Below, one piece after another: positions 6,581-20,578 of a stretch of DNA of 44,804 nt. The stretch covers positions 1 through 44,804 of IMG/VR virus record IMGVR_UViG_3300033150_001311; one strand, given 5' to 3'. How positions within the stretch are numbered: the first letter of the stretch is position 1; each line of letters begins with the position of its first letter. The stretch comes from a virus. The notes under the pieces are model-generated. The model was not told the DNA's origin, did no database searches, and saw nothing but the letters and a program-made list of their open reading frames with translations. Both the position numbers and the translations under genes were made by a program.

Positions 6581-6947
6581 CTAAAATCTCCTTTTCTTTC
6601 TTCAGTTCCTCATAGATTGCTTCTTTATCTACCTTCTGAACAGTATGATATCTCCTCAGCAGGTCATCATACCATTCTTGTCCCTTCTCTTTTCTGAGCC
6701 ACTCCGCAAATACCAGCGGAGCCTGATGGGCACTATCATTGCCAAAGACATGGCATTTGTGGCACAGGGCAATCCCGTTATTGAGCGACCACCTTGTATT
6801 GAATATCCTTCTGCCGTGGATATGGTGTGCATTTAATGGCCCCATTGCTCCGCATCTCTCGCAGCGACCGCCCGCACGTTTCTTAATTATTTCCGACCAA
6901 AGCCTGTCGAGCTTCCTGGTCATTGCTCGTTGAGATGTCTTTTTCAT
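6561..6947 (-). CDS. NinG/HNH-like zinc-finger nuclease
   Basis: LDRLWSEIIKKRAGGRCERCG...LNAHHIHGRR...NGIALCHKCH...AH. Start moved from the track start (7031) to the ATG at 6947, which has GGAG 8 nt upstream. Overlaps the 3-prime end of the protease gene. Confidence 0.55.
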   Translation of the reverse strand: MKKTSQRAMTRKLDRLWSEIIKKRAGGRCERCGAMGPLNAHHIHGRRIFNTRWSLNNGIALCHKCHVFGNDSAHQAPLVFAEWLRKEKGQEWYDDLLRRYHTVQKVDKEAIYEELKKEKEILDGGKEV

Positions 6948-7563
6948 TTTCAATCTCCGTACAAATCTCCCTATAGGTGTCCGCGAATTCTTTGAGCCGG
7001 GAGGCTGGGACACAAAGGACAATATTACCATTGCCCCCTACCACCATTCCAACTACCTGTCCCTTCTCGTTTACCAAAGGTCCGCCGGAGTTGCCGGGTG
7101 CCGCATCCGCATCAACACCAATAACGGACATCCAGAACGGCAGGGCCTTGAACTCCAAAGACGAGATAATTCCTTTCGATGTCCACAGCACAGGATTATT
7201 ATAGGGAAATCCCTTAGTGTAAACAGTATCCCCTGCTTCGTAGTGTAGGTCCCAATTGACACTTCCCTTTCTTGACACTGGAAGTATTCCGATGTCAAAG
7301 AAGGAAACAGCTCCGCCAGTAATCCACTCTGTCTCCCCATCTGCGTACTCTACCCGGAAGTTATTTCCGATATTCAAAACGTGGGCAGCGGTCATTACCA
7401 TCTTATCTCCGCAGATGAATCCGGTTCCCATGCCCATCTCTTCGTTATCCCAGTAAGCGTATATCTTCACAACCTCCGGCTCGTTTACCATGAGGGGAGA
7501 GATAATCAAGGCAAGGCCGATGGCGGCTGACAGTATTGCAACTGATGGTAATACATATCTCAT
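6883..7563 (-). CDS. Trypsin-like (S1/chymotrypsin fold) serine protease with an N-terminal signal/anchor sequence
   Basis: Catalytic motifs TAAHV (His), FFDIGIL (Asp) and GNSGGPL (Ser). The hydrophobic N-terminus is MRYVLPSVAILSAAIGLALIISPL. Start set to the ATG at 7563, which has GGAG 6 nt upstream. Confidence 0.8.
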   Translation of the reverse strand: MRYVLPSVAILSAAIGLALIISPLMVNEPEVVKIYAYWDNEEMGMGTGFICGDKMVMTAAHVLNIGNNFRVEYADGETEWITGGAVSFFDIGILPVSRKGSVNWDLHYEAGDTVYTKGFPYNNPVLWTSKGIISSLEFKALPFWMSVIGVDADAAPGNSGGPLVNEKGQVVGMVVGGNGNIVLCVPASRLKEFADTYREICTEIENEKDISTSNDQEARQALVGNN

Positions 7564-7623
7564 GTTTTTCTCCAAATTTCTTTTAATGTTAGCCCTTTTT
7601 CGTAACAAGTTCCCTTCGGGCTT

Positions 7624-10875: not shown

Positions 10876-11802
10876 TCAGACCCTCGCCCAATCCAACGCC
10901 TCTTCTTTAGTCATAAAAAAGTGTACTCCCTGGGCACAGGCAATCCTGATGTCATCATTGTAACCGTCAGGACGATAAATCTTACCCTCTACGTACTTCC
11001 CTCCCCAAGCAGATTTTCCGCTGCCCTTCACAACCTTTACGTACTCTGCCCGACACTTTCGGCTTACCAGACAAGACGTTCTCTTTGCCCCCGCAGGGAT
11101 GTATATTTTCAGTACCTTATCCGTGGCGGCCTTCCATGCGTAGAAACCGCCCGTCTCGGGACAGATTTGGAAATTAGGAAGTGTTGCTCCTTCGAGATTG
11201 GCCCCTGACAAATTAGCTTCCATTAGGCTAACTCCCCACAAATTGGCCTCCCGCAGGTCGGCCTTTGTCAATATTGACCTTTGTAGATTGGCTCTTTGTA
11301 ATCTTGCTTTCTGTAAGTTGGCATTTCTCAAATTTACCTGATATAGGTCAGCTTGTAATAGATTGGTTTCCCGCAGGTCTGCTCTTTCCAGGTCTGCCTC
11401 TCTTATGACAGCATCCGCCAGTGTGGCCCCCCTTAAATTAGTCTCGCGGAGAAGGGCACTTCGCAGATTGGCTTTCGCCATCTTTGCGTTCTGAAAGTTG
11501 GCAAAACTAAGGTCAGCCACAAAAAGGTCGGCTGTACATAACATGGCCCCATCTAAAATGGCCTCCCTCAAGTTAGCCTCTGTTAAATCTATTTTCCGGA
11601 GGGATGTCTTAGATAAATTGGCCTTTGACAAGTTAGCCCCCGAAAGAGTTGAGTGTTCCAAGGATGCTCCCCGCAAATCTACCCCAGACAAATCAACCCC
11701 CCGCAAATTTTCCCCAATCAGAACAGCTCTTTCGCCTCCGCTTGCCCCATTTAACCATTTCTTGTGGTTTTCCAATATCTTTTTTAGCTTTGTGTTATCC
11801 AT
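10876..11802 (-). CDS. Pentapeptide-repeat protein with a non-repeat C-terminal domain
   Basis: About 40 consecutive A(D/N)LxX pentapeptides (ANLSKANLSKTSLRKIDLTEANLREAIL...). The roughly 90-aa C-terminal domain ends ...CAQGVHFFMTKEEALDW. Start is the ATG at 11802, in a TAAAATG junction with the upstream gene. Confidence 0.9.
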   Translation of the reverse strand: MDNTKLKKILENHKKWLNGASGGERAVLIGENLRGVDLSGVDLRGASLEHSTLSGANLSKANLSKTSLRKIDLTEANLREAILDGAMLCTADLFVADLSFANFQNAKMAKANLRSALLRETNLRGATLADAVIREADLERADLRETNLLQADLYQVNLRNANLQKARLQRANLQRSILTKADLREANLWGVSLMEANLSGANLEGATLPNFQICPETGGFYAWKAATDKVLKIYIPAGAKRTSCLVSRKCRAEYVKVVKGSGKSAWGGKYVEGKIYRPDGYNDDIRIACAQGVHFFMTKEEALDWARV

Positions 11803-11803
11803 T

Positions 11804-12079
11804 TTACTCTCCCAAATAATCTGCAATAAGCTTGTTTACTTTCGTGATAACATATGACACCTCGTCCCTTACGTTATCCAATGTGTTGAGTAAACTAAGA
11901 AGCAGTTGTTCCGGAGATTCCTCGATGCTAAGACTCTCCTGTCCAGATATAAACAAGGGGAGCAATACGATTTCCTCTCCGTCATCGCTTACGACAAGCT
12001 CCAGATGCTTCAATTCCGGAACCCTTCTCTTGATATCCTCAATCACTGAACAGAACAGGTCAATTTTATCTGTGTTCAT
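11804..12079 (-). CDS. Hypothetical acidic protein (91 aa)
   Basis: The ATG at 12079 overlaps the upstream TGA (ATGA). The track start at 12085 is a TTG. Confidence 0.55.
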   Translation of the reverse strand: MNTDKIDLFCSVIEDIKRRVPELKHLELVVSDDGEEIVLLPLFISGQESLSIEESPEQLLLSLLNTLDNVRDEVSYVITKVNKLIADYLGE

Positions 12080-12972: not shown

Positions 12973-13007
12973 AGTTTTCTCCAAAAAAAGTTTTGTTTTT
13001 TCGTACT

Positions 13008-13057: not shown

Positions 13058-13792
13058 TTACGGTATTCCTATAGCACAATCCTCACACAGCACCGCCTCC
13101 CAAACAGGATTATACTTGCCTATCTTCCATCCGCAGAAAGTGCAGATATTATCGTGGTACTCTTCGTCATAGTCTATCCAGTAATCATCGTAATCCTGAT
13201 AGGTCTGGACGAACTTGATATCTTTATACTTATTCCAGAACCTCCGAAACTTGGCTATCTGCCTTTTCATCACACTCAGGTCTACATAGCTCCACTCACT
13301 ATGTGCCCCCTGATATCCGATGCCAAGGTTAAAGCAGCACGCATCGGTATTCATAAAGGCAATATCAGAGAAACTGCCGATGCCAATGTTCCAGTATTCG
13401 AGCAGAGCATCTCTGAAACCTGGACTATCCAGCTCGTAAGTTACCACATCCTTGCCCGCCCTGTCGAACTCCACAATCCAATTGTAGTCTTTGAGGTCAT
13501 GAAACTGGGCGGTAGACCTCCCTTGCTCCTCAAGGTCAGTGAGCAGAAGGTCAGCTCCCAGCTCTCGGCTGAGAGAGAAGGCTATATCGCAGCCCAGCCT
13601 GTCGTCTAATCCGGTAGCAAATATCCTATTCTTGGTTACTCGCTTTATTCTGGGCGGCAGCACGGTGTCCACGTGTGCCACAAACAGCACACTCCCCCCG
13701 TTGTCGATAAAGATTCTTCTATTTTCGCCGACAGCTCCGAAGTGCTCAAATATTTCGGACGCCGGTCTCCACCAAAAGCTGTTCAGATTCAT
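13058..13792 (-). CDS. M20/M28/M42-like dinuclear zinc peptidase with a C-terminal CxxC...CxxC zinc ribbon
   Basis: Metal-ligand order FVAHVDTV (H.D), GLDDRLG (bridging D), DLEEQG (EE), SFSDI, GAHSE (H). C-terminus CTFCGWKIGKYNPVWEAVLCEDC. Start set to the ATG at 13792 (TAAAATG junction) rather than the track start at 13981, which overlaps the upstream gene. Confidence 0.6.
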   Translation of the reverse strand: MNLNSFWWRPASEIFEHFGAVGENRRIFIDNGGSVLFVAHVDTVLPPRIKRVTKNRIFATGLDDRLGCDIAFSLSRELGADLLLTDLEEQGRSTAQFHDLKDYNWIVEFDRAGKDVVTYELDSPGFRDALLEYWNIGIGSFSDIAFMNTDACCFNLGIGYQGAHSEWSYVDLSVMKRQIAKFRRFWNKYKDIKFVQTYQDYDDYWIDYDEEYHDNICTFCGWKIGKYNPVWEAVLCEDCAIGIP

Positions 13793-13793
13793 T

Positions 13794-14021
13794 TTATGCC
13801 CCGAAAAAATCCACGTAATCAAACAGCCCCTCCTTGAGCATTTGCTCACCCTCTCCCTGCGTCCAGTACGAGATATCCTCTCCCACGACCTCGCCCCCAT
13901 CAGATATCCACTGATGGATGAGCCGGTAGTGCATGGGGAACCCGCCTTTCCACAGGGAAACTGGGCTGTCCAGTTTTTCAAGAATCAAAATGTTATTGGC
14001 TCGGTACTCTTTCTTTAACAT
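13794..14021 (-). CDS. Hypothetical protein (75 aa)
   Basis: ATG with GAGGAG 5 nt upstream; 7-nt overlap with the upstream gene. Confidence 0.55.
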   Translation of the reverse strand: MLKKEYRANNILILEKLDSPVSLWKGGFPMHYRLIHQWISDGGEVVGEDISYWTQGEGEQMLKEGLFDYVDFFGA

Positions 14022-15265
14022 GCGGTCTCCTCAAGTATTTCTGCTTCGCAATCCTCACAAACTATTTTACCGTTTATCTCTCGCAGGTCATCGGACAAGT
14101 ACTCTTTCCCGCATATTTCACACGCTTCTGCTAAGCGATAGCAGTCAGGGCAAAGGTCAAGAGTCTCAATCTCTATGATACTGCTCTCGAAATATACCTC
14201 CCCGCATTCATCACACTCTACGGTTTCTGTGTCATAGCAATCCTTGCAAATGGCCATGTCTTCGCATTTTTTCATATCTTCCCGCTCTGTCTCTTGCCCG
14301 CATATCTCGCATTTAGTGTAGGTTTCTTCATAACATTCGGGACAATACATATCTCCGCAGTCGTCCTCTACCGCATCTTCGTAAGACACAACCTCTTCAC
14401 AAGCATAGCACCGTGTGTAGAGTTCATCGAAGCAACTTTCACATACCTCAGTGTTCGCTACTAACTGCTCAAAATCGCCGCATCTTTCACACCTCTCGGA
14501 GAAATGGCCGTCTGTGTTGTTAAGTGAAAGCGTAGCCCCCTCTTCGTCTGAATAAAGAGTTATGTATCCGCCCCCTTCTGGAACCGCATACTCGAAAATG
14601 TCCATGTAAGGCACGTGCCCATAGTCAAACTTTACGCTGGATACCATCTCCCCGATAGGCGGCTCATTAAGTTTCCAACCCTCTTTTTTAGCATAACTGT
14701 CGGCCACATCCCTTAACCACTCTGCGGTACAGTAGTATCGACTTACGTATGTCTCCCCGTTGTCCGCCTTGATTATCACCGCCCGCAGGCTATCATTACC
14801 GGACCGAACAACAAGAAGACCAAACTTATCTGGGTTATTGGCGTACATTTTTACGCAGTGCGACCTATGGCCGGACATGCAGGAATGCCCGCCGACTTCG
14901 TCCTTGTATGCCTTTACTATATCCTCTCCCCGCAGAATCTCTACCTGGCATCTCTCTTCATCATCCCAGATGTGCTCTTCTATCCTTACCGCGATGTCTC
15001 GAATGGCCGTATCGGACAGAAACTCTGTCAGTTTCAGTTTTCTGGTAAGATATCGAGCCGTTCTCAGCTTCACCCTGTTTCCCTTCGGCCCGTCATAAGC
15101 GATGAAACCAAAGATTCCATCTTCTGGGCGTGTCGGCTTCAGAAAATCTACTCTTTCGATATCTTCCATTGCCGCCCCGAAATCCTCTTTTGGTAGTTTG
15201 GTTATTTCACTAACCACCAAGCTTTTGATATACTCTGTCAAGTCTTTTGAACTACACACACTCAT
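14015..15265 (-). CDS. Paralog B: unknown N-terminal domain (SCMSG motif) plus five tandem CxxC...CxxC zinc ribbons
   Basis: 416 aa from the ATG at 15265 (GAGGG upstream). About 55% identical by eye to 15621..16838 over a 130-aa core (RYLTRKL...DIVKAYK..VGG.SCM.G...MYA.NPD...GNDSLRA...KAD.G.TYVSRYY.TA..L.DVAD.Y...GW). The C-terminal 150 aa is five repeats of C-x2-C-x(10-18)-C-x2-C. Confidence 0.8.
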   Translation of the reverse strand: MSVCSSKDLTEYIKSLVVSEITKLPKEDFGAAMEDIERVDFLKPTRPEDGIFGFIAYDGPKGNRVKLRTARYLTRKLKLTEFLSDTAIRDIAVRIEEHIWDDEERCQVEILRGEDIVKAYKDEVGGHSCMSGHRSHCVKMYANNPDKFGLLVVRSGNDSLRAVIIKADNGETYVSRYYCTAEWLRDVADSYAKKEGWKLNEPPIGEMVSSVKFDYGHVPYMDIFEYAVPEGGGYITLYSDEEGATLSLNNTDGHFSERCERCGDFEQLVANTEVCESCFDELYTRCYACEEVVSYEDAVEDDCGDMYCPECYEETYTKCEICGQETEREDMKKCEDMAICKDCYDTETVECDECGEVYFESSIIEIETLDLCPDCYRLAEACEICGKEYLSDDLREINGKIVCEDCEAEILEETAC

Positions 15266-15275
15266 TTTCCTGCCC

Positions 15276-15620
15276 TCAAAACTCAATATTCCGAATCGGT
15301 CTTGTCTCCGACACCTTGCTTCTTTTCTCCGTAATGACAACATAGTAATCGTCCTGCCTCAGCATGGCAAGAATGATTCTTTTCTGGACATCCGTTAGGC
15401 TGGCGTATTCAAAGGCTGCCACCATACCCTGTCGGCCCTCTCTGAGCATATACCGACAGACGCCCTCTTCTATCGCCTGCTCAAGAGTATATCCAAGAGA
15501 CCGGCAAGTTGCGGCGTGGTCTGTAGTTACAATAACTTCTCCGGTCCGCAGGATAAACCCGCCGGAACCACAGTGCTTGACCGGTACGCTTTTCAGGGAC
15601 TTCAACTTTTTTTCTATCAT
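15276..15620 (-). CDS. Hypothetical protein (114 aa) between the two paralogs
   Basis: The ATG directly follows the upstream TAA, with GGAGG 5 nt upstream. No recognisable motif. Confidence 0.6.
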   Translation of the reverse strand: MIEKKLKSLKSVPVKHCGSGGFILRTGEVIVTTDHAATCRSLGYTLEQAIEEGVCRYMLREGRQGMVAAFEYASLTDVQKRIILAMLRQDDYYVVITEKRSKVSETRPIRNIEF

Positions 15621-16838
15621 TTACGCCTCCACTACAGCTTTTTCTTGGCAGTCTTTGCACAGTGGTCTTTCTTTGTCTTTTATGTTGTCCCGAAGCTCCG
15701 CACCGCCACACTCCGAGCACAATTCTGTCCCATAAGCATAGCAATACGGACAAAGCAAAACTCCAGAGACCTTCACAAGGTTTCTTTTGAAAAACTCTTC
15801 TTCGCAATGACTGCATGAAGCCACATATTCATCATGGCAAGTATAGCAAACAGGATAACCCCCCACTTCAATTCTCGCCTCTATGGTCTCTCCACATACT
15901 TTGCATTCTGTGAAAAACAGGTCATAGCAATCTGGACAGCAAGGTTGACCGGCAGGACCCCGCAAGATATGCCTTTTCTCTGTTAATTCTCGGCAAAGGT
16001 CGCAGTATTCATATCTTGCCTCTAAACATTCATCACAGATACCTTCTGGCGAAAGCCCCCTACAGCCCTGTCCACACTCTGGGCATATGTAGAGTAACCA
16101 CCCAGAAGTAGCCCCCAGAATTACTTCTACCTCGTCGTTATTATAGGGCAAAAGGGTAAGATGATTCGGAGATTCTCTGTAGGCATACTGGAATATATCC
16201 ATATACGGAATCCCGCCCTGAATATACATCACGTTAGATACCTTCTCTTCTGGGGGTATTCCTGCTTCTCCATCTTGTCCCCATCCATGGGTCCAGCCTT
16301 GTTGTTTGATATAATTGTCCGCTACGTCTTCAAGGAACCTTGCAGTCCGGTAATACCGGCTGACGTAGGTCCTTCCACTGTCAGCCTTAACCAGAATTGC
16401 TCTGAGACTGTCATTACCGCAAGTAATAACCAGCATGCTGAAGATATCGGGGTTATCAGCATACATTCTTGTACAATCTGCGGAGTCTCCCGTCATACAG
16501 GACCTTCCACCTACATGGTTCTTGTACGCTTTCACGATATCATCTCCCCAAATCACCTTTATGTCGCACAGCTCTTCTGTACTCCACAGATGGAAGTTGA
16601 GTCGATGACTGAGAGACACAATCTTTGCCTCAGAAAGATATCTCCGCAAGTCGAGTTTTCTTGTCAAGTACCTCTGGGTTTTCAGCTTTCTTCGCTCTCC
16701 ATTCTTGTAGTCATGGGCGATGTACCCCACACTCCCGTCCTTGGGAGTCGAGGGGCTCAGAAAATCTATGGAGTCTATCTCATCCTTGTACAGGCCATAT
16801 ATCTTCAGCTCTCGTGTTAAAAACTCTTCAATACTCAT
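15621..16838 (-). CDS. Paralog A: unknown N-terminal domain (SCMTG motif) plus five tandem CxxC...CxxC zinc ribbons
   Basis: 405 aa from the ATG at 16838 (ATGA overlap with the upstream gene). Same architecture as 14015..15265. Confidence 0.8.
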   Translation of the reverse strand: MSIEEFLTRELKIYGLYKDEIDSIDFLSPSTPKDGSVGYIAHDYKNGERRKLKTQRYLTRKLDLRRYLSEAKIVSLSHRLNFHLWSTEELCDIKVIWGDDIVKAYKNHVGGRSCMTGDSADCTRMYADNPDIFSMLVITCGNDSLRAILVKADSGRTYVSRYYRTARFLEDVADNYIKQQGWTHGWGQDGEAGIPPEEKVSNVMYIQGGIPYMDIFQYAYRESPNHLTLLPYNNDEVEVILGATSGWLLYICPECGQGCRGLSPEGICDECLEARYEYCDLCRELTEKRHILRGPAGQPCCPDCYDLFFTECKVCGETIEARIEVGGYPVCYTCHDEYVASCSHCEEEFFKRNLVKVSGVLLCPYCYAYGTELCSECGGAELRDNIKDKERPLCKDCQEKAVVEA

Positions 16839-17092
16839 ATCAGCTTCGCTCCAACCTTTTCTCTGGTAACCATGCAGCATTCTTGTCCGTTTGTCTTGTT
16901 TATCTCCATACAGATACTACGGACATCCATGGCCCCTTTCTCTACGATAATCTCTATCACCAGAGAATCCTCTTCTCCAGACTTCCAGTATCCTGTTGCA
17001 GAGAAGAGGGTAAAGCTGTCAAAATATTTTCTTACGATTTCGACTATCCTGTCCCGATTGACATCCTCTGTGTAGATACGATACCTTACCAT
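16835..17092 (-). CDS. Hypothetical protein (85 aa), first gene of the P2 operon
   Basis: ATG at 17092 with GGAG 8 nt upstream. The track start at 17137 would run into the promoter motif. Confidence 0.6.
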   Translation of the reverse strand: MVRYRIYTEDVNRDRIVEIVRKYFDSFTLFSATGYWKSGEEDSLVIEIIVEKGAMDVRSICMEINKTNGQECCMVTREKVGAKLI

Positions 17093-17123
17093 ACTCAATA
17101 CTCCGAAAAAAAGTTTTTTGTTT

Positions 17124-17151
17124 TTTATACGCTGCAAAAGTTTTTTTGTTC
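17124..17151 (-). promoter_or_regulatory. Conserved promoter-like motif P2 (GAAC-N16-CGTATAAA)
   Basis: The minus strand reads TTGAACAAAAAAACTTTTGCAGCGTATAAAAAAC, about 30 nt upstream of the ATG at 17092. The following leader (AACAAAAAACTTTTTTTCGGAG) resembles the P1 leader (AACAAAACTTTTTTTGGAG). Confidence 0.6.
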
Positions 17152-17178
17152 AAGTTTTTTTCAAAAAAGTTTTTGCAC

Positions 17179-17206
17179 GAACAAAAAAAGTTTTTCAATG
17201 TACTAA
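17179..17206 (+). promoter_or_regulatory. Degenerate sixth copy of the promoter-like motif (GAAC-N16-TGTACTAA), rightward
   Basis: TTTTGCACGAACAAAAAAAGTTTTTCAATGTACTAAG on the plus strand, immediately upstream of the 2 x 30-bp direct repeat. Confidence 0.35.
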
Positions 17207-17265
17207 GGTAACCAGCCAACTTTTCTCAGAAGAGCAGGTAACCAGCCAGCTTTTCTGAGAAGGGG
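17206..17265. repeat. 2 x 30-bp tandem direct repeat in a non-coding region
   Basis: aggtaaccagccaacttttctcagaagagc / aggtaaccagccagcttttctgagaagggg, about 26 of 30 identical. Confidence 0.9.
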
Positions 17266-17458
17266 CGGTCTGGTCTCTGTCGAGACGATAGGGCGGTATT
17301 GTGTAGTCATTTTCTCTGATACAGTATCCGATAGAGCTTGTCTGATATAATACTTTACTTGTCTTGTCGGGTATCCTGTCCGGACGATAGTTTACCCGTT
17401 CTATCTTGTATCTGTATGGTACCTATTGAGGGCGCGAAAAAAAAACAAAAAAAAGAAT

Positions 17459-17485
17459 GAACAAAAAAAAGCAAACATCGTATAG
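17459..17485 (+). promoter_or_regulatory. Conserved promoter-like motif P3 (GAAC-N16-CGTATAG)
   Basis: A-rich tract-ATGAACAAAAAAAAGCAAACATCGTATAGTAAGC on the plus strand, about 115 nt upstream of the ATG at 17600. Divergent from P2. Confidence 0.55.
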
Positions 17486-17599
17486 TAAGCGTCAACCGGC
17501 GGCGGTTCGATGCGGTTTTCGGCGGCGTTTCTGAAAACTGTCTGTTTTCGACGTTGCCACCCGCTTTTTACAAGTTAATAGTGTTTTACGGAGCCGAAC

Positions 17600-17770
17600 A
17601 TGAATAAAGACTACAGAGTTTGTCCGGTATGCAAGCAGGAAAAGCACTTTATCGAGTTTCAGGATGTCCAATGTTCTGATAGCGTGCAAGAGTACCACGT
17701 TTGCACGGACTGCAAATCGGAGTTTCTGGACATGCAGTACACTTTTCTTGCTGATGCGGTGAAAAAGTAA
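17600..17770 (+). CDS. Small zinc-ribbon protein (56 aa)
   Basis: Not in the track because it is under 60 aa. GGAG 6 nt upstream. Translation: MNKDYRVCPVCKQEKHFIEFQDVQCSDSVQEYHVCTDCKSEFLDMQYTFLADAVKK. Confidence 0.5.
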   Translation: MNKDYRVCPVCKQEKHFIEFQDVQCSDSVQEYHVCTDCKSEFLDMQYTFLADAVKK

Positions 17771-17804
17771 AGTAAAGTTTTATTATCTTTTTCGGAGGTT
17801 TGCT

Positions 17805-17987
17805 ATGAAGGCTGAAATCAAGAACGGAAAACTCGTGATTACATTGGACGCCAACACCAAAGAACCGCCGGACAGCAAGTCCGGCAAAAGCAAAATCATT
17901 GCCACTACAGGGGGCAATGTCTTGACCGGTTTGCAGGTCAACGGCAAGCAGGTTTTCATCGGCGTCAATGCCTTTATCAAGAATTAA
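17805..17987 (+). CDS. Hypothetical small protein (60 aa)
   Basis: GGAGG 7 nt upstream of the ATG. Beta-rich sequence GKLVITLDANTKEPPDSKSGKSKIIATTGGNV... Confidence 0.6.
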   Translation: MKAEIKNGKLVITLDANTKEPPDSKSGKSKIIATTGGNVLTGLQVNGKQVFIGVNAFIKN

Positions 17988-18004
17988 GTAACGGAGACTC
18001 TAAA

Positions 18005-18121
18005 ATGCCTTGTGATATGTATGCCCGATGTAGTGAGTGCCCCTATTGGGACGCTGATATAATGGACTGTGTCTGTAGTCCTGACACGGTCTATCTGGAC
18101 ACAGACGATAGGGACGATTGA
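18005..18121 (+). CDS. Cys-rich micro-protein (38 aa)
   Basis: Not in the track. GGAG upstream. Translation: MPCDMYARCSECPYWDADIMDCVCSPDTVYLDTDDRDD. Confidence 0.4.
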   Translation: MPCDMYARCSECPYWDADIMDCVCSPDTVYLDTDDRDD

Positions 18122-18193
18122 GGATACCGACAGGCAAGGATGCCTTTTGTTTTTTAGCCCCACAGGAATATTATCGGACTATAACAAGCTATT

Positions 18194-18244
18194 AGCCGAT
18201 TTGCTGTATAAAGCCGTAGGATTGATTCTAATCGGCTTTTTTTC
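18194..18244 (+). terminator. Putative terminator of the rightward micro-operon
   Basis: AGCCGATT ... AATCGGCT (8-bp arms, 28-nt loop) followed by a T-run (TTTTTTT, 18238..18244). The long loop lowers confidence. Confidence 0.4.
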
Positions 18245-18396
18245 TTGACGGGTGTTTAGTATCGACCGCAGAGAGTTCGCCCATCCTGATGGAATCTGGT
18301 GCGTTCTGTGGCAAAATACGAAAAAGGTCGTAAAGCCAGTTGACCAGATGGACGGGAAAACCTACCAGAACAGGGAAAAAGTGGATATTGTAAGCA

Positions 18397-18425
18397 TAAA
18401 AAAAGACCGACCAAAAGGCCGGTCT
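18397..18425 (-). terminator. Rho-independent terminator of the leftward micro-ORF operon
   Basis: The minus strand reads AGACCGGCC-TTTT-GGTCGGTCT (8 of 9 bp paired) followed by TTTTTTT. Confidence 0.7.
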
Positions 18426-18473
18426 GTGGTGTGGTGGTGTGGGTGTCAACACAAGGCTAAGTAAGCCAGGATG

Positions 18474-18644
18474 CTAACAAGCAGAAGGTCGATTAACTCT
18501 TGTCTGGTCATTGCTATCGCCCCCTAAAACGGTTTCTAAAACGGCTTCTTTGATGATGATGGTGTCGCTCTGACGGTCGTAGATGTCGCCGTTATGCAAC
18601 TTCAAATAACGACCTTTGGGCTTTGTGCTGATTCTAACTTTCAT
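18474..18644 (-). CDS. Possible small protein (56 aa)
   Basis: Not in the track. The ATG at 18644 has only a weak GGGA upstream. Translation begins MKVRISTKPKGRYLKLHNGDIYDRQSD... Confidence 0.3.
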   Translation of the reverse strand: MKVRISTKPKGRYLKLHNGDIYDRQSDTIIIKEAVLETVLGGDSNDQTRVNRPSAC

Positions 18645-18660
18645 TGTCAATTTTCCCTAT

Positions 18661-18768
18661 TCAATATTCAAGCCAAACTGAGTAAATCCATGCTATTAAG
18701 CCAACTGTTCCAAACGTACCGGCCAATACCAACACCATTAAGCCAATTGCCGCAAGACCTTCAGTCAT
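18661..18768 (-). CDS. Single-pass membrane micro-protein (35 aa)
   Basis: Not in the track. ATGA overlap with the upstream gene and GGAGG upstream. Translation: MTEGLAAIGLMVLVLAGTFGTVGLIAWIYSVWLEY. Confidence 0.45.
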   Translation of the reverse strand: MTEGLAAIGLMVLVLAGTFGTVGLIAWIYSVWLEY

Positions 18769-18896
18769 TTCAACGCCTCCAGTTTGAAGTAATAGTAATT
18801 CAACAACTGCTTTAATGCCGCTTTTTCCGCAGGCTGGCAAGTGTGCAGCTTCTTGAGCACCTCCCTGTATCGCTTTTCTATCTCTCGCTTACTCAT
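18765..18896 (-). CDS. Small helical protein (43 aa)
   Basis: Not in the track. The ATG overlaps the end of 18889..19074. Translation: MSKREIEKRYREVLKKLHTCQPAEKAALKQLLNYYYFKLEALK. Confidence 0.45.
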   Translation of the reverse strand: MSKREIEKRYREVLKKLHTCQPAEKAALKQLLNYYYFKLEALK

Positions 18897-19074
18897 GGTT
18901 CAACCTCCAAGTCGTGGTTTTATCGCCTACAAGGTTCAATCCGAAACTTTCAGACTCTGCGTCGTCAAGTTTTGCCGCGTCTAACGTCCCTTCATTCGTA
19001 TTCCAGACCGTTAACCAAACCTCTGTGCTGTCGTCCAGCCCCTCCAGTGCCTTTTTCAATTCTTTGACTGTCAT
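18889..19074 (-). CDS. Small acidic protein (61 aa), first gene downstream of the sigma70-type promoter
   Basis: GGAGGG 7 nt upstream of the ATG, about 37 nt downstream of the predicted -10 element. Confidence 0.6.
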   Translation of the reverse strand: MTVKELKKALEGLDDSTEVWLTVWNTNEGTLDAAKLDDAESESFGLNLVGDKTTTWRLNHE

Positions 19075-19117
19075 AGTTCAGCCCTCCAACAAAAAACAGT
19101 ATTAACTTGTCGTATAA

Positions 19118-19146
19118 ACTATACCACACAGAGCACAGCTTGTCAA
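19118..19146 (-). promoter_or_regulatory. Near-consensus sigma70 promoter (TTGACA-17 bp-TATAGT, with TGG just upstream of the -10)
   Basis: The minus strand reads AAAAAAAGTAC-TTGACA-AGCTGTGCTCTGTGTGG-TATAGT. The -35 is at 19146..19141 and the -10 at 19123..19118. It is the best match to the canonical hexamers that I found in the window. Confidence 0.7.
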
Positions 19147-19180
19147 GTACTTTTTTTCAGCCAGCCTATAACCAAGCTTT

Positions 19181-19427
19181 CAAGTCTTTAATACTTCTTT
19201 ATCAACTACTTCAGCCGGTCAAATCCTTGACCTTTAGAGTCTTTATTATAACTATTGCTTTTTACTGATAAACTTGTTTTCAAGTCTTTTATCCTGTTTT
19301 GTCTATTGCCGGTTATTGAGTAATTGAGTCTTTATTATAACAACAGCCTTTATCTGTAGTTGAATAGTCAAGTCTTTATTACAAGAATTACTCTTTGCCG
19401 CCAAGACTGTTTTCAAGTCTTTAATAC
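19181..19427. repeat. Iteron-like array: six dispersed copies of a 14-bp motif
   Basis: Copies at 19181 caagtctttaatac, 19237 gagtctttattata, 19281 caagtcttttatcc, 19326 gagtctttattata, 19369 caagtctttattac and 19414 caagtctttaatac. All are in the same orientation, spaced 56, 44, 45, 43 and 45 bp apart, in a non-coding region. Confidence 0.8.
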
Positions 19428-19705
19428 CTTTTTATCGACTATCCCTGCGGGCCGGATTATAGACCGATAATATGCTGTGGCTTTGAGGCCCACAGGGCCT
19501 TTGTCTGTATCGTCCGTGTGAATTGAATCGGTTATGATTCTGATTGTATCGATTGTAGGGTTTATTTTGTCCGATAAAAGGCCCTTTTTCATGCCCGCGC
19601 TCAAAGGGGTACAGGTAGGTCGGGAATTCAATGAGTAGGCCCCGGGCAGGTATTAAGCAGCCAGGCAAATTTTACAAATTTTTGACCGGACAAAACCCCG
19701 ACCTG

Positions 19706-19727
19706 AAAAAATATACATATATTTTTT
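19706..19727. repeat. AT-only palindrome (10-bp arms)
   Basis: AAAAAATATA-CA-TATATTTTTT, about 280 bp from the iteron array. Confidence 0.85.
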
Positions 19728-19857
19728 GGGAACTTAATTTCCCGTAGAAGGCCTCAGATTGGCTCACAATCCATTTTCTTTTTTGGGGGGTGTCTGGTAT
19801 AGGCCAATATGAGTTCGTCGATTCTGAGCCATCCTCGTGCGTTATACGGCAATCTAA

Positions 19858-20061
19858 CTAATATAGTGCCCGCAGGGCCTCAAGAACGAGCTTTTCAAAA
19901 CCCAGGGACCTGTCGTGTGTTACATATTCTGTTTTATCCCCGGATTGTATCCTATAATTGGATATGTTTCCTCCACTAATGTTTGCAATTTCCACGATAT
20001 CCAAGACTTTCTTATCCTCTTCCACGCCAAACGGTACTATTTCTACTATTACCCTAAGCAT
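19858..20061 (-). CDS. Hypothetical protein (67 aa)
   Basis: ATG at 20061 in a TAAAATG junction with the SPFH gene stop. Confidence 0.55.
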   Translation of the reverse strand: MLRVIVEIVPFGVEEDKKVLDIVEIANISGGNISNYRIQSGDKTEYVTHDRSLGFEKLVLEALRALY

Positions 20062-20062
20062 T

Positions 20063-20578
20063 TTAGTCCTCTTCTCTTCCAAGTAATCTCAGATTCATGC
20101 ACTTCCCTATGTCGGTAATATAGACCCGCATTATTTTTAGTCCGAAGCCGGAGGCTTCTTCTCGCAGAGAGGTTAGAATCTGGTCCCGGATTTGGCCTAC
20201 TTCAAGCTCCGAAAACTTCTTTTTGCCCACGTACTCTGTGATAACGCCCATGCAGAATGTCTGGATGCTGCGGTCGAAGTCCTGGACATGAAGCAGGGCT
20301 TTCTTGGCGTCGCTTATTTTGTACAGGACTCCTCCAGATATACTGACGTTATCCCGGTCCTTTGTCAGGACGCTCTGGGGTCGCAGGTCGATTGGCTGCG
20401 GGGTTACTGTAACTTTGTAGGCTTCCTGGATTACGGGCCAGTAGATATACCAGCCCGGGGGCAGTCGCTTTACTCCCGTCCCGAGAGTTATCCTGACGCC
20501 CCCCTCGTCAGGAAATACGATAAATACTCTCGGGAAAAAATCCCTTATTGTCTCCAGTAGATTTGAAAACCAGCTCAT
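20063..20578 (-). CDS. SPFH/band-7 (stomatin/prohibitin-like) domain protein
   Basis: 171 aa. VFPDEGGVRITLGTGVKRLPPGWYIYWPVIQEAYKVTVTPQPIDLRPQSVLTKDRDNVSISGGVLYKISDAKKAL follows the SPFH core pattern. Confidence 0.75.
   Translation of the reverse strand: MSWFSNLLETIRDFFPRVFIVFPDEGGVRITLGTGVKRLPPGWYIYWPVIQEAYKVTVTPQPIDLRPQSVLTKDRDNVSISGGVLYKISDAKKALLHVQDFDRSIQTFCMGVITEYVGKKKFSELEVGQIRDQILTSLREEASGFGLKIMRVYITDIGKCMNLRLLGREED

Follow-up and report, generated by a model that had tools for sequence, protein, structure and literature searches.

The DNA analysed here is a viral contig of 44,804 bp (IMG/VR record IMGVR_UViG_3300033150_001311; this whole stretch is referred to as the window), and the subject is an operon of six minus-strand genes at positions 13058–17092. 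Two of its genes encode paralogs, A and B, each built from an orphan N-terminal domain (the head) followed by an array of predicted zinc fingers, and its last gene, pep, encodes a predicted metallopeptidase. The core of the operon is a conserved two-gene phage module, in which a gene for an orphan domain of about 250 aa with three to five fingers is accompanied by a gene for an MH-clan peptidase. The contig was deposited in a metagenome-assembled genome labelled 'Deltaproteobacteria bacterium' (locus tags JRI56_00115 and JRI56_00125), and its gene content marks a tailed phage, with products including a family-A DNA polymerase, a DnaB-like helicase, terminase, a PD-(D/E)XK exonuclease, a single-stranded DNA-binding protein (SSB), Metallophos and HNH proteins and a trypsin-like peptidase.

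Operon layout and the conserved gene pair

A first-pass annotation, made from the letters of the DNA, had reported six tightly coupled minus-strand genes; all six open reading frames (ORFs) were found, arranged head to tail with junctions of −4, 0, +10, −7 and +1 nt. The series opens with g85 (16835–17092; 85 aa), a small protein matching phrog_16022 (E = 5.7e-6). It is followed by the gene for paralog A (15621–16838; 405 aa), in which the orphan domain (residues 1–248) is encoded at 16095–16838, its invariant SCM motif at 16494–16502, and an array of five predicted treble-clef (LIM-like) Cys4 zinc fingers at 15621–16094. After g114 (15276–15620; 114 aa), for which library scans returned no family match, comes the gene for paralog B (14015–15265; 416 aa), with the orphan domain (residues 1–256) at 14498–15265, the SCM motif at 14876–14884 and again five predicted treble-clef (LIM-like) Cys4 fingers at 14015–14497. 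A further small ORF, g75 (13794–14021; 75 aa), is inserted between B and pep (13058–13792; 244 aa). The latter comprises a catalytic core of about 205 aa (13178–13792), classed as a minimal MH-clan (M20/M28/M42-like) dinuclear metallopeptidase, and a C-terminal single Cys4 zinc unit (13058–13177; CTFC-x15-CEDC) in the style of the array units. The earlier count of 11 CxxC-pair units per operon was reproduced, with 5 in A, 5 in B and 1 in pep. A gap of 73 nt separates pep from the next gene, exo302. When the region was compared with phage records at the DNA level no match was obtained, and a scan of genome contigs using narrow patterns gave no prophage copies.

Related loci were collected by exact-protein look-up and a scan of IMG/VR, and their ORFs were searched with the window proteins and a peptidase hidden Markov model. 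Of the 18 distinct loci that were informative, 17 had the peptidase gene directly downstream of the domain/array gene (L001–L003, L008–L013, L015, L016, L018, L019, L021, L022, L028 and L029); two more, L014 and L017, break off after the domain gene and were uninformative for linkage. The adjacency set spans contigs of 120 kb (L019/L020) and a subfamily about 25% identical to B (L028 and L029), and in close relatives translation of the peptidase gene is coupled to that of the domain/array gene. Among cultured phages the pair was encountered only in Thermus phage TSP4 (83 kb), which encodes QAY18141 (hypothetical) and QAY18142 ('metal-dependent hydrolase'). QAY18141 has the same orphan domain with SCM and NPD motifs, and QAY18142 is an M28-like hydrolase homologous to pep; in contrast to the window, however, the hydrolase gene lies directly upstream of the domain gene, the zinc array is present on neither protein, and QAY18141 ends in a strongly acidic C-terminal tail. 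The TSP4 record carries the note 'No HHBLITS hits' on the domain protein. Flanking genes differ in the 120-kb contigs, in the approximately 25%-identical subfamily and in TSP4.

A and B are 40% identical overall; their full-length alignment by BLASTP gave E = 1e-98 and 38% identity, with 56% over B residues 64–197 (a 134-aa core) and 27% over the Cys-rich part; the former value agrees with the roughly 55% over a 130-aa core that had been estimated by eye. All six sequence blocks listed for the paralogs (RYLTRKL, DIVKAYK, VGG.SCM[ST]G, MYA.NPD, GNDSLRA and TYVSRYY) were present in both. A and B are mutual best matches (288 bits, versus 219 bits for B's best external match) and in relatives the domain gene is present only once, so the duplication is specific to this phage lineage; B is the copy nearer to the single-copy orthologs of related phages. 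Upstream of the pair, homologs of g85 were found in just two loci (L001 and L009) and a homolog of g114 in one (L001; E = 4.5e-26); g75 had none in any related locus. By this distribution the three small genes are accessory or lineage-specific and outside the conserved core. Co-occurrence in related phages, as considered for the operon genes by the first-pass annotation, was thus general only for the domain/array gene and the peptidase gene, with g85 and g114 shared by one or two close relatives and g75 and the duplication by none.

Orphan domain, zinc-finger array and peptidase

An exhaustive profile search with the orphan domain collected 3,725 clusters at 50% identity (E ≤ 1e-3), 1,938 of them at E ≤ 1e-10. 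A word-indexed protein search had given just 5 relatives and a second one, with 103 query sequences, 25 proteins; the rare family suggested by the word-indexed search was overturned by the exhaustive profile search. The earlier statement that no system of this architecture had been described was accordingly retained as to description and dropped as to any implied rarity: the head domain and the pair are undescribed in the libraries searched and the literature found, and the peptidase and the fingers represent known folds in a new form. The family occurs almost exclusively in phage sequences, and by tblastn the domain was also detected in 'huge phage' records of 630–735 kb from uncultured phages. 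Three to five fingers follow the domain in 125 of the 156 retrieved domain proteins, and fusion of head and peptidase was seen in none of 169 retrieved proteins.

Conservation was computed over the best 150 family representatives, some as little as about 20–25% identical to B, and is given in B numbering. C129, M130 and N144 are invariant in these sequences, which extends the earlier remark on an invariant cysteine in an SCM.G context to all 150 aligned representatives, and R64, G113, I116, Y120, G125, S128, Y141, P145, R161, D168, G170, R176, Y178, P219, D222 and G253 are at least 90% conserved. Judged from the alignment, this pattern of invariant and near-invariant residues is typical of an active site and not of a scaffold. 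In the structure model, C129 is predicted to lie in a Gly-rich loop, GG-x-S-C-M-[TS]-G, three residues ahead of helix 132–143; reactive cysteines are often located in a loop just before a helix. No His was found among the invariant or ≥90% conserved columns of the 150 representatives, and a classical Cys-His (papain-like) thiol peptidase, together with its mechanism, was therefore ruled out.

The head gave no match in Pfam, NCBIfam or PADLOC, and A and B of the window none in PHROGs. Among 103 diverse family members there was no Pfam match on the head domain, and three PHROGs of unknown function matched faintly, one of them (phrog_23053) in 6 of the 103. Sequence and profile searches of the head against the PDB were also without a match. 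A first AlphaFold2 (AF2) model, from a 5-sequence alignment, reached a head pLDDT (predicted local distance difference test) of 68.8, and a second, from a 12-sequence alignment, a pLDDT of 85.5 and a pTM (predicted template-modelling score) of 0.72. The head is modelled as an N-terminal helical hairpin, a beta-hairpin and helices, followed by a beta-alpha-alpha-beta-beta-beta-alpha-beta core. With the model of pLDDT 85.5, Foldseek returned nothing significant from the PDB (best E 0.04), and in the BFVD set of predicted viral structures 11 uncharacterised phage proteins matched the head at 1e-8 to 1e-12. The first-pass annotation could not assign the N-terminal domain to a family, and Pfam, NCBIfam, PADLOC, PDB sequence searches and Foldseek against the PDB likewise gave no characterised family. 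Two candidate relatives were rejected by hhalign, namely the 'TSCHS/GSCM' head of proteins P0157–P0159 as a divergent homolog (0.2%) and, against the amidoligase alignment, the orphan head as a divergent amidoligase (0.4%).

GNAT-fold proteins (Eis, NAGS, malonyl-CoA decarboxylase and small GNATs) recurred as weak Foldseek matches for two independent head models, and the secondary-structure order of the head model is similar to, or compatible with, theirs. However, the Foldseek probability was at most 0.41 for the better model (up to 0.80 for the first, lower-confidence one) with TM ≤ 0.25, no Pfam GNAT match was obtained in the 103 members, the Q/R-x-x-G-x-G/A pyrophosphate-binding loop was not seen in the alignment, and GNAT proteins have no counterpart of the head's invariant Cys. 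The GNAT-likeness of the modelled head is treated as a lead only.

The C-terminal parts of A and B contain exactly ten CxxC motifs each, arranged as five C-x2-C-x(12–18)-C-x2-C units; the five tandem units described before were thus recovered in number, with the spacer range corrected from x(10–18). In the full-length AF2 model of B the array is the confident part (pLDDT 80–89), and a short helix starts at the second CxxC of each unit, e.g. C308–C311 with helix 309–315. From this predicted geometry the units are better described as treble-clef, LIM-like fingers than as zinc ribbons: of the earlier label the Cys4 pairs were kept, and 'ribbon' was replaced by treble-clef on the basis of AF2 geometry, LIM matches in Foldseek and Pfam LIM matches in relatives. 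The Pfam DZR model scored 14.4 bits against the array, at a threshold of 27.3. Foldseek matched the array to the LIM proteins CRP1, PINCH and TES (E about 1e-4 to 2e-3), both being tandem treble-clef fingers, and six of the 103 family members were matched by Pfam LIM (PF00412), the best at 1e-6. Differences from LIM domains were also clear: LIM uses C2HC plus C4/C2HC ligands and a 2-residue inter-finger linker, whereas the array has Cys ligands throughout and 7-residue linkers, which makes it LIM-like rather than LIM; PF00412 misses A and B of the window, and LIM is a eukaryotic domain, whereas the window belongs to a virus of prokaryotes. A related or convergent fold, without LIM membership, is most likely.

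Homologous arrays occur on proteins with other heads. The array aligned with the N-terminal arrays of Amidoligase_2 proteins (hhalign 98.6%, E = 8e-16, 141 columns) and is also found with the third, unrelated head of P0157–P0159; tblastn matches were further obtained within plasmid-encoded proteins of Streptomyces and Pseudonocardia that carry the annotation XRE or Cro/CI regulator. Judged by these matches, the array is a mobile module. Among the plasmid matches, a 764-aa 'Cro/Cl family transcriptional regulator' of the Streptomyces albidoflavus plasmid NZ_CP109227.1 (L027, 2620–4914) has an array-like stretch (tblastn 5e-6) and no Pfam domain, and similar matches lie on 13 other Streptomyces and Pseudonocardia plasmids. 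In protein P0156 (L030, 152–1453) DnaJ-type CxxCxGxG repeats replace the LIM-like array, which means that one and the same head can be followed by zinc-binding repeats of different types.

For the peptidase, pep alone matched phrog_4191 'peptidase' (2.6e-9) and stayed below threshold in Pfam (M42, 12.7 bits versus 23.2). An alignment of pep with 15 homologs from related loci (16 sequences) showed A39-H40-x-D42, D63-D64-R65-x-G67, E88-E89, D110-R111, D143 and H164 to be invariant, and these columns correspond to the MH-clan ligand set (H, bridging D, catalytic/ligand EE, D, H). The 16-sequence profile matched Peptidase T (M20B, 3gb0) in the PDB at 4.9e-7, with the N- and C-terminal halves both aligned, TET1 (M42, 2cf4) at 5.3e-6 and the M42 entry 3cpx at 1e-5, while homologs from L007 (26.2 bits) and L026 (23.6 bits) exceeded the Pfam M28 gathering score of 21.3. 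The dinuclear M20/M28/M42 ligand order noted for this gene (H.D, DD, EE, D, H) was hence found with invariant ligands in the 16 sequences, and the peptidase assignment proved right at clan level from the PepT/TET1 profile matches and the homologs above the M28 threshold; by sequence, pep is an MH-clan metallopeptidase with an intact catalytic set.

Ligand order and identity are shared by pep with M42 TET/FrvX, M20 Peptidase T and M28, from all of which it differs in being phage-encoded, locked to a partner gene and fused to a C-terminal Cys4 unit. Only about 20 residues lie between the successive motifs H40, D63, E88, D110, D143 and H164, leaving no space for an insert, and the core of about 205 aa lacks both the lid/dimerisation domain of M20 and the inserted PDZ-like domain of M42; since there is no room for either, pep was placed in the MH clan only, as a minimal subfamily. 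Most pep homologs have one C-terminal Cys4 unit and some have two, and in L012 the C-terminal stretch of the peptidase ORF can be aligned to the part of B that holds the array (E = 3e-4). The partner peptidase of a distant relative (L028, 6483–7559) has two C-terminal Cys4 units, and the peptidase extension of L016 weakly resembled two Pfam entries, the ClpX C4 zinc finger and DUF7129, at scores under the threshold (4.8e-4 each). A tblastn search of phage records with pep gave no match.

Proposed mechanism and rival explanations

Iyer et al. in 2009 reportedly described phage gene pairs of an Amidoligase_2 (PF12224) protein and a GATase class-II-like peptidase, and Pfam describes a GATase-like neighbourhood for PF12224. 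At the two loci examined (L023 and L024), Amidoligase_2 proteins bearing the array are followed by GATase class-II-like genes, and at L026 the third, unrelated head with an array is followed by an M20/M28-like peptidase. The amidoligase pairs resemble the module of the window in forming a two-gene unit of enzyme head and hydrolase in phage early/replication modules, and in carrying, on a subset of the amidoligases, a homologous zinc array. They differ in that the array is N-terminal there and C-terminal here, that the partner is an N-terminal nucleophile (NTN)-type thiol amidohydrolase there and an MH-clan metallopeptidase here, and that their glutamine synthetase (GS)-like catalytic domain is unrelated to the orphan head, as the hhalign value given above indicates. 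Together these loci suggest a recurring design in phage early/replication modules, in which a variable head on a shared zinc array is combined with a dedicated amide hydrolase, and sharing of the array with amidoligase/GATase pairs suggests interchangeable heads on one scaffold, each with its own hydrolase. Roles proposed for the amidoligase pairs include cell-wall modification, secondary metabolism and DNA hypermodification (PMC10580990; PMC8989533).

We infer, at somewhat less than an even chance, that the module combines a catalytic head, a zinc-finger scaffold for targeting or docking and a hydrolase, which act on one shared target early in infection. The orphan domain would be the catalytic head and would use its invariant cysteine, the zinc-finger array would hold the head on a macromolecular target and may dock the peptidase via the matching zinc unit of the latter, and the metallopeptidase would act on that target too by hydrolysing an amide or peptide bond, thereby exposing, trimming or reversing the action of the head. 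Because the module heads the replication/early gene block, the target is probably a host or phage protein, or nucleic-acid-bound, early in infection. A bolder version appears distinctly unlikely: in this, the orphan domain would be a new class of cysteine-dependent macromolecule-modifying enzyme and would form, with the mini-aminopeptidase, a widespread phage system that covalently rewrites host or phage proteins as infection begins, e.g. through trimming of their N-termini and subsequent acyl or aminoacyl transfer, and the array would serve as a shared scaffold for several interchangeable heads, i.e. the orphan domain, Amidoligase_2 and the third unknown head.

Several observations weigh against the proposed head–scaffold–hydrolase mechanism. 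The single exception to the linkage, L030, is a short contig whose domain protein, P0156, carries the DnaJ-like CxxCxGxG repeats and has no peptidase beside it. No finger follows the domain in 10 of 156 members, TSP4 is also arrayless, and the zinc unit is absent from the most distant pep homologs (L007, L018 and L019); with some members lacking an array and some peptidases lacking a zinc unit, docking through zinc units is not obligatory. The head is without a significant structural or sequence relative, its invariant Cys could serve structure alone or bind a metal or cofactor, and the analogy with amidoligase pairs is, as far as the comparison goes, architectural only, with unrelated heads.

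The orphan domain might instead be a non-enzymatic binder or inhibitor that sequesters or mimics a host factor, with the fingers adding avidity and the peptidase maturing or turning over the protein or its partner. No catalytic family could be assigned to the head, Cys arrays of the LIM-like and DnaJ-like types usually mediate interactions between proteins, the acidic tail of the TSP4 homolog resembles DNA mimics or SSB tails, and a pentapeptide-repeat protein in the neighbourhood is another likely mimic, all of which are in favour of a binder. The invariant Cys-Met and the invariant or near-invariant Asn, Arg, Asp and Tyr, however, exceed the usual conservation of a binding surface, and the almost constant presence of an adjacent hydrolase whose active site is intact suggests shared chemistry. 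A binder is held to be unlikely, if still deserving of weight. Modification of nucleic acid, with the Cys attacking a base, the fingers as putative DNA/RNA-binding elements and an amidohydrolase sculpting an appended amino-acid moiety, is considered improbable. Pyrimidine C6 is the site of attack in thymidylate-synthase-like enzymes, C5-methyltransferases and amino-acid:DNA transferases, and enzymes using a nucleophile at this position characteristically combine a Cys with Arg, Asn, Asp and Tyr. The conserved residues of the head fit this set, the array is found also in XRE- and Cro/CI-annotated proteins on Streptomyces plasmids, and the module lies within the replication block. Thiolate enzymes of this kind are discussed in PMC8989533, and the co-occurrence of amidoligases and amidotransferases with thymidine-hypermodification genes in viral contigs (PMC8989533) points in the same direction. 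Against it, no dUMP hydroxymethylase, 5-hydroxymethyldeoxyuridine (5-hmdU) kinase or aGPT-Pplase was present among the window ORFs scanned, and Foldseek showed no fold similarity to thymidylate synthase or methyltransferases.

Remodelling of protein N-termini was rated as quite improbable. Here, the aminopeptidase would expose host N-termini and a GNAT-like head would acylate or aminoacylate them, in the manner of L/F-transferase or Fem-type enzymes, redirecting the proteins to proteolysis or inactivating them. M42/M28/M20 relatives are mostly aminopeptidases or tripeptidases, and the recurrent weak GNAT matches and the GNAT-like secondary-structure order are in line with such a head; the low Foldseek probabilities and TM values, the missing pyrophosphate-binding loop motif, the lack of any Pfam GNAT, Leu_Phe_trans or FemAB match in the 103 members and the fact that GNAT transferases normally need no Cys are not. 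Very improbable, finally, is synteny without function in one phage lineage, with the small ORFs and the duplication being neutral. Many loci do come from similar phages of about 45 kb with the same downstream exonuclease, but the adjacency is also found in 120-kb contigs, in the approximately 25%-identical subfamily and, in reversed order, in TSP4, where the flanks differ.

The family is strongly constrained, counts thousands of clusters and has an invariant Cys and a near-obligate peptidase partner, yet there is no Pfam or NCBIfam entry for it. Solving one such system would probably account for a good deal of the phage 'dark matter' found in early/replication modules and could reveal new host-takeover or counter-defence chemistry; the cultured carrier, Thermus phage TSP4, makes the question directly testable.

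Control region and neighbouring genes

The AT-rich region upstream of the operon (17093–17265, minus strand), a putative promoter or leader, contains three exact copies of AAAAACTTTTTT at 17107–17195, directly upstream of g85, with 0.66 expected per whole window, and a tandem 30-nt direct repeat (87% identity) at 17206–17265. A similar AAAACTTTTTTT-GGAG leader (12984–12995) lies in the gap before the exonuclease gene exo302. A sigma-70 consensus scan called no promoter at 17093–17200, and the same sigma-70/terminator scan no minus-strand terminator after pep. As regards the description of the genes as an operon after a promoter-like motif, P2, the operon stood and the promoter was not confirmed. 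The AT-rich region, the AAAAACTTTTTT copies and the AAAACTTTTTTT-GGAG leader fit, without proving, the proposed unit boundaries, and the AAAAACTTTTTT/AAAACTTTTTTT elements may constitute a phage-specific promoter or leader element missed by the sigma-70 scan.

Exonuclease, SSB, DnaB-like helicase and Metallophos genes are found downstream of the module, both in the window and in relatives. That the genes are expressed early and serve in anti-defence, as read from gene position, is a plausible guess; PADLOC gave no match for A, B, g114, g75 or pep, and a chance-level one only for g85 (E 0.029).

Between the operon and the DNA polymerase block, a gene-poor region of about 3 kb (17138–20062) resembles an origin or control region, with several inverted repeats and with direct-repeat families of 31–66 nt (74–81% identity) at 19178–19465. 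It includes a plus-strand ORF of 56 aa (17600–17770), in which a CPVC…CTDC pair is followed by Phe, making a separate zinc unit that resembles the operon's own in style. The pentapeptide-repeat protein mentioned above (316 aa; 10876–11826, minus strand; Pfam 3.7e-48) carries DUF5758 at its C-terminus and belongs to the same early block, and proteins of this type are often DNA mimics. The early/replication block also has a gene for a trypsin-like serine peptidase (6883–7608, minus strand), and another is encoded in the related 45-kb contig L001 (1306–2046), which gives this phage group a second, unrelated peptidase. Adjoining the DNA polymerase gene, an SPFH/Band 7 domain protein (20063–20578, minus strand; Pfam 6.4e-22) is encoded, an unusual cargo for a phage.

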